Positions 30,938 to 35,441 of a stretch of DNA of 64,000 bases are shown here, in pieces. The translations under genes and the position numbers were made by a program. Source of the DNA: Escherichia coli (GTDB lineage: Bacteria; Pseudomonadota; Gammaproteobacteria; Enterobacterales; Enterobacteriaceae); assembly GCF_030384885.1 (NCBI RefSeq), contig NZ_CP128613.1; one strand, written 5' to 3'. How positions within the stretch are numbered: position 1 is the stretch's first letter; the number at the start of each line of letters is the position of its first letter. The notes under the pieces were generated by a model. It searched no databases. It had not been told where the DNA came from and worked only from the letters and a program-made list of their open reading frames with translations.

Positions 30938-32623
30938 GTGAATATAAACGTCGCCGAATTGTTAAATGGGAATTACATTCTGTTATTATTTGTGGTCCTC
31001 GCGCTTGGGCTATGTCTCGGAAAATTACGGCTTGGTTCGATCCAACTGGGTAATTCCATTGGCGTTTTAGTCGTATCGCTGTTATTAGGCCAACAACATT
31101 TCAGCATTAACACCGACGCGCTTAATCTTGGCTTTATGCTGTTTATTTTCTGCGTCGGGGTCGAAGCTGGACCGAACTTTTTTTCCATTTTTTTTCGCGA
31201 TGGGAAAAATTACCTAATGTTAGCACTGGTGATGGTTGGCAGTGCGCTGGTGATCGCCTTAGGGTTAGGTAAGCTGTTTGGCTGGGATATTGGCCTGACG
31301 GCCGGTATGTTAGCAGGCTCTATGACCTCGACACCGGTTCTGGTCGGTGCTGGCGATACACTGCGTCATTCCGGCATGGAAAGCAGGCAGCTCTCACTGG
31401 CACTGGATAATCTGAGCCTCGGGTATGCCTTAACCTATTTAATTGGTCTGGTGAGTTTGATTGTTGGTGCGCGTTACTTGCCGAAATTGCAGCATCAGGA
31501 CTTACAGACCAGCGCCCAGCAAATCGCCCGCGAACGTGGCCTGGACACAGATGCCAACCGTAAGGTTTATTTGCCGGTGATCCGCGCCTACCGCGTCGGC
31601 CCGGAGCTGGTAGCCTGGACCGACGGCAAAAATCTGCGTGAACTGGGTATTTATCGACAAACTGGCTGTTACATTGAACGTATTCGGCGTAACGGGATTC
31701 TGGCAAATCCAGACGGTGATGCCGTGCTGCAAATGGGCGATGAAATAGCGTTGGTAGGCTATCCCGACGCCCACGCCCGACTCGATCCCAGTTTCCGTAA
31801 TGGCAAAGAAGTTTTTGATCGCGACCTCCTCGACATGCGTATCGTCACTGAAGAAGTGGTCGTTAAAAACCATAACGCTGTTGGCAAACGTCTCGCACAA
31901 CTGAAGTTGACCGATCACGGTTGCTTCCTTAACCGCGTCATTCGTAGCCAGATTGAGATGCCGATTGATGACAACGTCGTGCTTAACAAAGGTGACGTTT
32001 TACAAGTCAGCGGCGATGCCCGTCGCGTAAAAACCATCGCCGATCGCATCGGCTTTATCTCGATTCACAGCCAGGTCACTGACTTGCTGGCATTCTGCGC
32101 CTTCTTTGTTATTGGGCTGATGATCGGGATGATCACCTTCCAGTTCAGCACATTCAGCTTCGGCATGGGGAACGCTGCCGGTTTGCTATTCGCCGGAATT
32201 ATGCTGGGCTTTATGCGTGCTAACCATCCGACATTCGGTTACATTCCGCAGGGTGCGTTAAGTATGGTGAAAGAGTTCGGCTTGATGGTATTTATGGCAG
32301 GTGTTGGACTAAGCGCTGGTAGCGGTATTAATAACGGCTTGGGCGCAATTGGCGGTCAGATGTTGATTGCCGGATTGATTGTCAGTCTGGTGCCAGTGGT
32401 TATCTGCTTCCTGTTCGGTGCTTATGTATTGCGAATGAACCGCGCACTGTTGTTCGGCGCAATGATGGGCGCACGCACCTGCGCGCCGGCAATGGAGATC
32501 ATCAGTGATACAGCTCGCAGTAATATCCCGGCGCTGGGCTATGCGGGCACTTACGCAATCGCCAACGTCCTGCTGACGCTGGCAGGGACAATCATCGTCA
32601 TGGTATGGCCAGGATTAGGATAA
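30938..32623 (+). CDS. ybjL: Putative AAE-family transporter YbjL (561 aa)
   Basis: Translation [46 protein letters not shown]; two membrane domains around a central TrkA-C-like region. Confidence 0.9.
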
Positions 32624-32666
32624 AACTGAAGTTGCCCTGAAAATGAAATTTTTTTGCACAACCGCA

Positions 32667-32695
32667 GAACTTTTCCGCAGGGCATCAGTCTTAAT
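32667..32695 (+). promoter_or_regulatory. Candidate sigma-E promoter of rybB
   Basis: GAACTT as -35 at 32667-32672 and TCTTAA-like -10 at 32688-32693, correctly spaced before the RNA 5' end at 32700. Confidence 0.55.
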
Positions 32696-32699
32696 TAGT

Positions 32700-32778
32700 G
32701 CCACTGCTTTTCTTTGATGTCCCCATTTTGTGGAGCCCATCAACCCCGCCATTTTGGTTCAAGGTTGGTGGGTTTTTT
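32700..32778 (+). ncRNA. rybB: RybB small regulatory RNA (Hfq-dependent, sigma-E regulon, represses OMP mRNAs)
   Basis: GCCACTGCTTTTCTTTGATGTCCCCATTTTGTGGAGCCCATCAACCCCGCC... matches the RybB sequence as recalled, ends in a terminator hairpin plus T run, and lies in the expected ybjL-rcdA gap. Confidence 0.85.
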
Positions 32779-32797
32779 GTTATCTAAAATTTATCTA

Positions 32798-33334
32798 CTA
32801 CCCGGCAACCCTCTCAACCATCCTCAAAATCTCCTCGCGCGATAGCGGCTTACGGTCGGTGACAAAATGCAGCGTCATCCCCTCAATAAACGCATCAAGC
32901 GCGCGGGCGGTTCCGGGTTCAAACCATTGTTCGAGCGTTTGCTGACTGCGCTGCATCCAGTTTTGCATTACCGTTTTTAATAGCGGTTTTCGGCTAGCCA
33001 GCGCGTAGAGCTGGTACATCAGCTCCATGTTATCCGGCGTTGCAACCTGTGAGCTGTAGATCATATCGGTGATAGCCTGGCATGCGCCCGGAGCATCACT
33101 AACATCGCTAAAAAATGCCTGATATTGCCGGGACATGATCTCGGTAAAACTGCTGAACGCCTCCAGCAACAACTCATCAATCCCTGAAAAATAGTAGGTC
33201 ATCGATCCTAATGGTACCCCGGCAAGGGTAGCGATTTTGCGGTGCGTAACGGCATGTATTCCGTAAAGTTTCACCGCCTCCAGTGTGGCCTGGATGATTT
33301 TTTCTCGCCGTTGCGGATCGTTAGCGCGACGCAT
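32798..33334 (-). CDS. rcdA: TetR-family regulator RcdA/YbjK (178 aa)
   Basis: Translation [49 protein letters not shown] with TetR HTH. Confidence 0.9.
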
Positions 33335-33417
33335 GTCATTTCCTCTCTCTGCAATTGTGTACAAATGTACACAACCTTGCTAATGTTGTCTTCCCTCTTC
33401 TTATTTTGACGTGATCT

Positions 33418-34626
33418 ATGACCGTAAATTCTTCACGTAATGCATTGAAACGCCGAACCTGGGCGCTGTTTATGTTCTTCTTTTTGCCGGGCCTGTTAAT
33501 GGCGTCCTGGGCAACTCGTACACCTGCTATCCGCGATATTCTTTCTGTTTCGATCGCTGAAATGGGCGGAGTCCTCTTTGGTCTGTCGATCGGTTCAATG
33601 AGCGGTATTCTCTGCTCGGCGTGGTTAGTGAAACGCTTTGGGACGCGTAATGTCATCCTGGTCACGATGTCCTGCGCATTGATCGGGATGATGATATTAA
33701 GTCTGGCACTCTGGCTGACATCGCCCCTGCTCTTTGCCGTTGGTCTCGGCGTCTTTGGGGCAAGTTTTGGTTCTGCAGAAGTGGCGATAAACGTTGAAGG
33801 TGCCGCCGTTGAGCGAGAAATGAATAAGACGGTTTTGCCGATGATGCACGGTTTTTATAGCCTGGGCACGCTGGCAGGCGCTGGTGTCGGGATGGCACTG
33901 ACGGCCTTTGGCGTTCCGGCAACGGTGCACATTTTATTGGCGGCGCTGGTAGGCATCGCGCCTATTTATATCGCCATTCAGGCAATCCCTGACGGTACGG
34001 GCAAAAATGCTGCCGATGGCACCCAGCATGGTGAAAAAGGCGTACCTTTTTATCGCGATATCCAGTTGCTGCTGATTGGTGTCGTGGTTCTGGCGATGGC
34101 CTTTGCCGAAGGTTCTGCCAACGACTGGTTACCCTTATTAATGGTTGACGGTCACGGTTTTAGCCCTACTTCCGGCTCGCTGATTTATGCCGGTTTTACC
34201 CTGGGGATGACTGTTGGACGCTTTACCGGCGGTTGGTTCATCGACCGTTATAGTCGCGTTGCCGTGGTTCGGGCCAGTGCACTGATGGGAGCGTTGGGTA
34301 TTGGGCTGATTATTTTTGTCGATAGCGCCTGGGTCGCTGGGGTGTCTGTTGTACTTTGGGGACTGGGTGCCTCGCTGGGCTTCCCGCTGACCATTTCTGC
34401 CGCCAGCGATACCGGCCCCGATGCACCGACCCGCGTCAGCGTGGTAGCAACGACCGGTTATCTGGCTTTCCTCGTCGGGCCGCCGCTGCTGGGCTATCTC
34501 GGCGAACATTATGGATTACGTAGTGCAATGCTGGTTGTACTGGCGCTGGTTATTCTTGCGGCTATTGTCGCGAAAGCCGTCGCCAAACCCAATACCAAAA
34601 CGCAGACGGCGATGGAGAATAGTTGA
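33418..34626 (+). CDS. ybjJ: MFS transporter YbjJ (402 aa)
   Basis: Translation [42 protein letters not shown]; divergent from rcdA. Confidence 0.9.
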
Positions 34627-35441
34627 TGAGCATTAAATTAATTGCGGTAGACATGGATGGTACTTTCTTAAGCGATCAAAAAACCTATAACCGTGAGCGG
34701 TTTATGGCTCAGTATCAGCAGATGAAAGCACAAGGCATTCGCTTTGTGGTCGCCAGCGGGAATCAATATTATCAGTTGATCTCTTTCTTCCCTGAAATTG
34801 CTAATGAAATTGCCTTTGTGGCTGAAAACGGCGGTTGGGTTGTAAGCGAAGGCAAAGATGTTTTTAATGGCGAGCTGTCGAAGGATGCGTTTGCTACTGT
34901 GGTGGAACATTTACTGACGCGCCCAGAAGTGGAAATTATTGCCTGCGGAAAAAATAGCGCCTATACCCTCAAAAAATATGACGATGCCATGAAAACGGTG
35001 GCGGAAATGTATTATCACCGTCTGGAATACGTCGATAACTTTGATAATTTAGAAGATATCTTCTTTAAGTTTGGCCTGAATCTTTCCGATGAACTGATTC
35101 CACAAGTGCAAAAAGCATTACATGAGACCATCGGCGATATTATGGTGCCGGTCCACACCGGCAACGGCAGCATCGATCTGATTATCCCCGGCGTACATAA
35201 AGCGAATGGCCTGCGCCAACTTCAGAAATTATGGGGAATAGACGACAGCGAAGTGGTGGTCTTCGGCGATGGTGGTAACGATATTGAGATGCTGCGTCAG
35301 GCAGGCTTTAGTTTTGCGATGGAAAATGCCGGCAGCGCGGTCGTCGCAGCGGCAAAATACCGGGCAGGCTCCAATAATCATGAAGGTGTACTGGATGTGA
35401 TCGATAAAGTTCTTAAACACGAAGCGCCTTTTGATCAATAA
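34626..35441 (+). CDS. ybjI: HAD-superfamily phosphatase YbjI (FMN / 5-amino-6-(5-phospho-D-ribitylamino)uracil phosphatase), 271 aa
   Basis: Translation [26 protein letters not shown] with HAD motif I DMDGT; ATGA overlap with the ybjJ stop. Confidence 0.9.
   Translation: MSIKLIAVDMDGTFLSDQKTYNRERFMAQYQQMKAQGIRFVVASGNQYYQLISFFPEIANEIAFVAENGGWVVSEGKDVFNGELSKDAFATVVEHLLTRPEVEIIACGKNSAYTLKKYDDAMKTVAEMYYHRLEYVDNFDNLEDIFFKFGLNLSDELIPQVQKALHETIGDIMVPVHTGNGSIDLIIPGVHKANGLRQLQKLWGIDDSEVVVFGDGGNDIEMLRQAGFSFAMENAGSAVVAAAKYRAGSNNHEGVLDVIDKVLKHEAPFDQ

Follow-up and report, generated by a model that had tools for sequence, protein, structure and literature searches.

RybB small RNA gene in the ybjL-rcdA gap of an Escherichia coli genome: a minor natural allele with a sigma-E promoter and an empty prophage attachment site at its 3′ end

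The gap between ybjL and rcdA in the 64,000-nt stretch of Escherichia coli DNA analyzed here (hereafter, the window) raises the question whether it holds a gene where automated annotation marks none, and, if so, whether the bases in which that gene departs from the K-12 sequence matter. RefSeq/PGAP records have no annotated feature under the rybB match described below, whereas the curated K-12 record does annotate rybB, and thus the gene is invisible to routine ORF/CDS annotation. This agrees with the original prediction, made from the letters alone, which had placed the RybB sRNA in this gap, unseen by the ORF track. In short, what lies there is the well-known RybB sRNA gene with a sigma-E promoter, present as a minor natural allele, and in this respect it is ordinary.

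The whole 64-kb window was scanned against Rfam 15, yielding three matches, by far the strongest of which is to the RybB model: RF00110 matches positions 32703-32781 of the plus strand with 104.8 bits (E = 1.7e-20), far above the gathering score of 40, and is covered from model position 1 to 79 of 79. The 79-nt segment itself starts with GCCACTGCTTTTCTTTGATGTCCCC at 32700, contains GGTTGGTGGGTTTTTT in its 3′ part, and has GGGTTTTTT as its last bases at 32778. The RNA is identical at 77 of 79 positions to the annotated K-12 rybB (b4417), and the 80 nt upstream of the transcription start are 100% identical. The scan and the alignment are two of the checks that the original prediction had proposed; together with synteny to K-12, they bear out its assignment. 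Indeed, the curated K-12 record has rybB in the ybjL-rcdA gap too, in the orientation of ybjL, and the location between ybjL and ybjK has been described for both Salmonella and E. coli (PMC1804206). The 801 bp around the site have a match in 5,422 out of 5,426 complete E. coli genomes, the flanks being always annotated as ybjL and rcdA. Coordinates of all features are given in Table 1.

Table 1. Features of the rybB locus in the window (positions are those of the whole stretch).
Feature	Position	Strand	Basis or remark
ybjL (aspartate:alanine antiporter), upstream flank, 561-aa ORF	30938-32623	+	ORF list, annotation
Sigma-E -35 element GAACTTT, positions -33 to -27	32667-32673	+	K-12-identical; conserved
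Sigma-E -10 element AGTCTTAA, positions -13 to -6	32687-32694	+	K-12-identical; conserved
rybB gene, 79-nt RybB sRNA	32700-32778	+	Rfam RF00110 and end-to-end alignment with K-12 b4417
5′ target-pairing (seed) region	32700-32724	+	nt 1-16 published seed domain; nt 1-25 invariant
Rho-independent terminator: 12-bp stem 32734-32745/32763-32774, inner 3-4-bp stem, U6 tail 32773-32778	32734-32778	+	ViennaRNA, identical to Rfam consensus structure
Variant T (K-12 C), RNA nt 56, apical loop	32755	+	K-12 alignment
Variant G (K-12 A), RNA nt 69; U41-A69 to U41-G69; first base of the prophage att core	32768	+	K-12 alignment, fold
Empty attB core (GTGGGTTTTTTGTTATCTAAAATTTAT) of P2-like/Felsduovirus prophages; overlaps the last 11 nt of RybB	32768-32794	+	27-nt direct repeat in lysogens
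rcdA (formerly ybjK), convergent downstream flank	32798-33334	-	ORF list, annotation
Short ORF, 43 aa, TTG start	32714-32845	+	
Short ORF, 71 aa	32730-32945	+	
Short ORF, 45 aa	32615-32752	-	

Several observations concern the window beyond this gene. Five differences over the first 50 kb separate it from strain 2013C-4282 (NZ_CP027579.1), to which it is nearly identical. At 32300-35441 the window lineage is an outlier: identity of at least 99% over the 801 bp is seen in only eight of 5,429 records, and in the rcdA-ybjJ-ybjI flank the window differs from each of 14 other strains by 66-88 out of 2,644 nt, which exceeds the divergence between most of these strains. The Rfam scan also matched naRNA4/CssrE at 56391-56468 on the minus strand in the moeB-fsa gap (74.3 bits, gathering score 59.5), which we take to be probably a REP-type repeat element, and ES036/CssrF at 20985-21027 on the minus strand in the artJ-rlmC gap, barely above the threshold (38.8 bits, gathering score 37.6). 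A gene for a pentapeptide-repeat protein (13954-15755, minus strand) lies between ybjQ and ybjP, and is given as a frameshifted pseudogene in the 2013C-4282 annotation; K-12, we assume, has no gene at this spot.

Upstream of the RNA, GAACTT (32667-32672) and GTCTTAA (32688-32694) are separated by a 16-nt spacer, with the end of the -10 element 6 nt before the start at 32700. The published sigma-E consensus has GGAACTTTT at -35 and GTCAAA at -10 (PMC1804206); GTCTTA of the window departs from the latter at two positions, and the K-12 sequence is the same. At the level of sequence, the arrangement expected of a RybB promoter (-35 GGAACTT, a spacer of about 16 nt, -10 GTCNAA, start at nt 1) is found here. 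As stand-alone statistical evidence the motif is weak and was rejected in that role: the strict form GAACTT-N15-17-GTCNNA occurs once in the 64-kb window against 0.25 expected, and 22 out of 100 shuffles contain at least one match. Its weight derives from position and conservation rather than from motif count. In 107 distinct upstream sequences from other Enterobacterales, anchored at +1, the GAACTTT block at -33 to -27 is 98-100% conserved, G-12, T-11, C-10, A-7, and T-1 reach 100%, A-13 and A-6 are conserved at 94% and 93%, respectively, and the spacing between the two elements is fixed, while the 13 nt between them vary freely. Judged by sequence, this pattern is the footprint of the published sigma-E consensus, and the GAACTT -35 and TCTTAA-like -10 noticed in the original prediction at the sigma-E distance have proved to be both K-12-identical and phylogenetically footprinted.

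The 5′ seed GCCACUGCUUUUCUUU begins at the transcription start and is identical to that of K-12. Within the RybB 5′ region, CACUGCUUUU has been described as a conserved seed common to MicV and VrrA, the seed core CRCUGCUUUU being shared by RybB, MicV, and VrrA (PMC6694218). The first 25 nt have an exact match in genomes of at least 120 species, from Escherichia, Salmonella, and Citrobacter to Yersinia, Serratia, Proteus, Providencia, and Xenorhabdus, and each of the 25 columns is without variation when 64 distinct RybB sequences are aligned; the original prediction had identified the seed correctly. Over at least 113 Enterobacterales species, this 25-nt start, the -35 GAACTTT, and the -10 AGTC..AA vary hardly or not at all. 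Single-sequence folding proposes a 5′ helix between nt 2-5 and nt 31-34, which was rejected: the pair A4:U32 is broken in 19 of the 64 sequences without compensation, and this fits a free, single-stranded seed.

The terminator is supported by covariation. In the 64 distinct sequences, seven out of 12 pairs of the terminator stem show compensatory double changes and 97.1% of stem cells are paired; neither the observed covariation nor the observed pairing was reached in any of 500 shuffles. Together with the predicted fold and the U6 run, this substantiates the hairpin followed by TTTTTT that had been read from the letters. A simple terminator scan gave no match, which is due to its limit to loops of 3-8 nt, the apical region of RybB being 17 nt; hence, this null result was rejected as evidence against a terminator. 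The 13 nt that follow the U-tract (32779-32791; ancestral GTTGCCTGAAATT) are also conserved in Enterobacterales (67-100% per column), including genomes with other genes downstream, and beyond them conservation collapses; the window and K-12 both carry derived changes at 32782, 32783, and 32786. Candidate reasons for this conservation past the 3′ end of RybB are the termination context and the use of the att site.

The original prediction had suspected that one stem position differs from K-12 and would be kept as a G-U pair, and such is the case at nt 69 (GGTTGGTGGG in the window, GGTTGATGGG in K-12), whose partner U41 lies at 32740; the loop difference at nt 56 had gone unmentioned. A third difference from K-12, T for C at 32790, falls 12 nt past the RNA. 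The predicted fold has -25.0 kcal/mol in the window against -25.2 kcal/mol in K-12, a net change of +0.2, to which A69G contributes +0.6 taken alone and C56U, also alone, -0.4, the latter gain because one A-U pair is added to the inner stem. Position 56 of the loop varies between genera. Of the distinct sequences, 40 have U-A at 41:69, 16 have A-U, and three have U-G, two of these three being from other species. Among 113 sequences (112 other species and the window) GGTTGGT is seen only in the window and GGTTGAT in 78; since G69 is present in none of the 112 other species compared, it is derived within E. coli.

By exact match in 5,420 E. coli records, the K-12 allele C56/A69 is found in 4,497, C56/G69 in 739, the window allele U56/G69 in 151, and other rybB alleles in about 33. 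G69 in total accounts for 890 records, about 16%, and is a well-established minority allele, which is at odds with a crippling mutation. From these sequence comparisons, we read U56 and G69 as neutral natural polymorphisms. The lack of G69 in the 112 other species leaves room for a subtle effect, and G69 may slightly influence termination or Hfq binding. In the same set of 5,420 records a single one, E. coli AR_0017 (NZ_CP024886.1; L006:2001-2070), falls into the 80-90% identity band; its rybB has a 9-nt deletion (GTGGAGCCCATCAACCCC to GTGAACCCC) by which the greater part of the 5′ arm of the terminator stem is lost, pointing to a likely defective allele or else to an error in the assembly. 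Seven of the rybB matches are on plasmid-typed records, and in some genomes the copy number reaches three.

The 3′ end of rybB is also an integration site. The rybB prophage hotspot has been published, as E. coli hotspot #29 (PMC10121019) and as the Klebsiella island Kpn38RybB (PMC4048246), and P2-like prophages have been listed in E. coli HS, ATCC 8739, and CFT073 (Nilsson et al., 2011). In lysogens, the prophage is bounded by a 27-nt direct repeat, (G/A)TGGGTTTTTTGTTGCCT(G/A)AAATTTAT, which begins with the 11 nt that end RybB. In about 1,130 of 5,426 genomes, an ogr/Delta-like gene adjoins rybB and the match to the 801-bp query breaks at window position ~32794; overall, a prophage or its remnant occupies the site in about 1,085-1,130 of 5,426 complete E. 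coli genomes (~20%), including CFT073, REL606/B, and APEC O78. The prophages between rybB and rcdA are P2-like with a 186-type regulatory region (CI, CII, Fil), and int adjoins rcdA. In the window the site is empty, as rcdA starts 19 nt past the end of RybB, with neither int nor ogr between them. The reconstructed int-attP-ogr junction is contiguous in Klebsiella phage KP12. The phage arm forms a hairpin of its own, in which the RybB 3′ end is copied by the 3′ arm and the U-run. As attP carries a copy of this end, the gene stays intact after integration. The GCC..G bases downstream of the gene were considered as phage-derived, and this was rejected by cross-species comparison, in which GTTGCCTGAAATT is the ancestral enterobacterial state and ATC..A of K-12 and the window is derived.

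The rybB-site prophages sampled here (L130-L141, L144-L146) carry varied defence-type cargo at two fixed positions, beside int/cI and beside the portal gene, e.g., retron St85 (in REL606), retron Ec67, AIPR, DUF4041/SNIPE, GmrSD, SIR2, TIR, KAP NTPase, PIN, and Sie-B, in agreement with the published description of the hotspot (PMC10121019).

Since nt 69 is the first base of the att core, the allele can be compared with the phage arm. Both junctions were read in 16 lysogens (L007, L130-L141, L144-L146), and in all 16 the base of the host at nt 69 (attL) is also that of the phage arm (attR): five G/G, 11 A/A, and no discordant pairs (Fisher p = 0.0002, uncorrected for relatedness, in a small sample). 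G goes with the phage arm ...CCCATTTAGATAAG, and A with ...CCCGTTTACATAAA or, in one case, with ...CCCATTTACATAAA; with the G-type phage core, the window core agrees at 24-25 of its 27 nt. In 10 out of 11 A/A lysogens, and in the G/G lysogen GN02461, attR is host-type and attL is phage-type at core positions 15, 16, and 19, which places the crossover within (A/G)TGGGTTTTTTGTT. The attR of GN02461 preserves exactly the attB type of the window (G with GTTATCTAAAATTTAT), and hence this type of site has already been used by a G-type phage. Four G69 hosts (L007, L132-L134) have 24-46 differences per 2,644 flanking nt, about as many as separate them from A69 hosts, and are not a clone; several A69 hosts are near-identical, so that the first 13 lysogens represent approximately four G and five A independent backgrounds. 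Among the integrases, the four compared from the G-type differ from one another by 1-4 aa and group as a tight clade; 14 substitutions, confined to residues 41-191, are fixed between them and the A-type.

A mismatched crossover followed by heteroduplex segregation would give discordant pairs, and therefore the concordant bases must have matched before integration. The concordance could be caused by a homology requirement at the core edge or by the population structure of phages and hosts. We tentatively suggest, with more doubt than confidence, that A or G at nt 69 defines two attB alleles, each used only by the matching P2-like phage lineage, so that the polymorphism would matter for integration and not for RybB function; if so, the window would have the minor "G" attB, accepting only G-type phages. 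A literature search on rybB, attB, and P2-like phages found no paper describing attB/attP matching at nt 69. A different idea, that G69 marks lysogeny or is a scar left by a phage, was rejected, as most occupied sites have A69: junction queries gave 1,087 records (93 exact) for A69 and 453 records (18 exact) for G69, and in an allele-blind sample seven out of eight lysogens had A69, the first three lysogens, all with G69, having been chosen for similarity to the window allele.

Taking all this into account, we consider it very probable (about 95%) that positions 32700-32778 of the plus strand are a functional copy of rybB with a neutral two-base variant, acting by the RybB mechanism as in K-12; against chance, the comparative evidence is decisive. 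The readings that compete with it explain parts of the data. If the G69 wobble, together with U56, weakened the terminator or the Hfq-binding module, the RNA would be under-produced or unstable, and a decaying gene of this kind would accord with the absence of G69 from the 112 other species, 78 of which keep GGTTGAT, and with the cost of the A-to-G change taken singly. We regard such impairment as very unlikely given that the net predicted change is just +0.2 on a fold of -25 kcal/mol, the U-G pair at 41:69 recurs in two distinct sequences of other species, about 16% of complete E. coli genomes have G69, the seed, promoter, and U-tail are intact, and the truly damaged comparator, AR_0017 with its stem deletion, is a singleton.

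It could also be supposed that the block is kept mainly as a phage att site or as a terminator shared by ybjL and rcdA, its resemblance to RybB being incidental; the prophage att core does consist of the RybB 3′ end and 16 nt downstream, and the 13 nt past the U-tract are conserved across genera. However, no more than 11 nt at the 3′ end of the RNA belong to the att core, the 25-nt seed and the sigma-E promoter are the most strongly conserved parts, for which an att site or a terminator gives no explanation, and the hairpin on the opposite strand is not followed by a U-run and thus is not an obvious terminator of rcdA, which makes this supposition even less credible than an impaired allele. 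Least of all do we expect an overlapping short ORF to encode a small protein. The three ORFs in Table 1 exist mechanically, but nt 1-25 are invariant at every position without codon periodicity, and the plus-strand ORFs have non-ATG starts and run antisense into rcdA; moreover, sequences more than ~13 nt past the U-tract are unrelated between genera, so that none of the plus-strand ORFs is conserved, and the short ORFs were rejected as genes.

For a functional rybB copy, much of the expected behavior has been described elsewhere. It has been demonstrated that rybB transcription is strictly sigma-E dependent (PMC1804206), and that the 5′ seed pairs with many omp mRNAs while the 3′ hairpin and U-tail form an Hfq-binding scaffold (PMC6694218); a transcript of ~80 nt that is rpoE-dependent, Hfq-associated, and omp-repressing is established in K-12 and Salmonella (PMC1804206; PMC6694218). 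As the promoter and the first 55 nt of the window copy are identical to those of K-12, the published findings should transfer directly, and we infer from the K-12 and Salmonella work that this copy depends on sigma-E, binds Hfq, and has the same targets and physiological role. Under envelope stress, sigma-E RNA polymerase would initiate at G32700 from the GAACTTT/GTCTTAA promoter, and transcription would end at the hairpin and U6, producing an RNA of ~79 nt. The 3′ hairpin and U-tail would bind Hfq, and the unstructured 5′ end GCCACUGCUUUUCUUU would pair with many omp mRNAs, including those of ompC, ompA, and ompW, whose translation would be blocked and decay accelerated. The load of unfolded outer-membrane proteins would then fall, providing feedback on sigma-E.

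As an sRNA call, this adds nothing new, RybB being a textbook sigma-E-dependent regulator and the window copy a natural allele. A practical point for annotation is that rybB is left unmarked by automated RefSeq annotation in nearly all E. coli genomes, and so a scan of raw sequence that recovers it works correctly. The research value is confined to a side observation, the co-variation of the single stem polymorphism of E. coli rybB, at the edge of the att core, with attP and integrase lineages, which is a modest lead from a small sample. Were it mechanistic, an sRNA gene would here provide a clean natural case of paired attB/attP specificity, with consequences for which strains are able to take up the prophages of this hotspot and their defence systems.

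Fels-2 and SopE-phi integrate at ssrA, and 186 at a tRNA-Ile gene. Similarly to these phages, Felsduovirus phages use the 3′ ends of RNA genes, and the 3′ end of rybB in the window carries an attB core of the Felsduovirus type; the window differs from the genomes with rybB-site Felsduovirus prophages in that the site is empty. Its attB is derived: core position 1 is G, and positions 15, 16, and 19 read AT..A, as opposed to the ancestral and phage-type GC..G. With respect to the RNA, the window copy has the same locus, 79-nt length, 5′ seed, terminator architecture, and U6 tail as RybB of K-12 (b4417) and Salmonella, and the promoter is identical to that of K-12, from whose RybB the copy differs at two bases, one in the loop (U56) and one in the stem (G69), the latter replacing U-A by U-G. 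Other sigma-E-dependent sRNAs are MicA and MicL in E. coli, and MicV and VrrA in Vibrio cholerae. They share the regulon logic with RybB and differ from it in genes, loci, and scaffolds; the window sequence is RybB itself and not a relative such as MicA, MicL, MicV, or VrrA.
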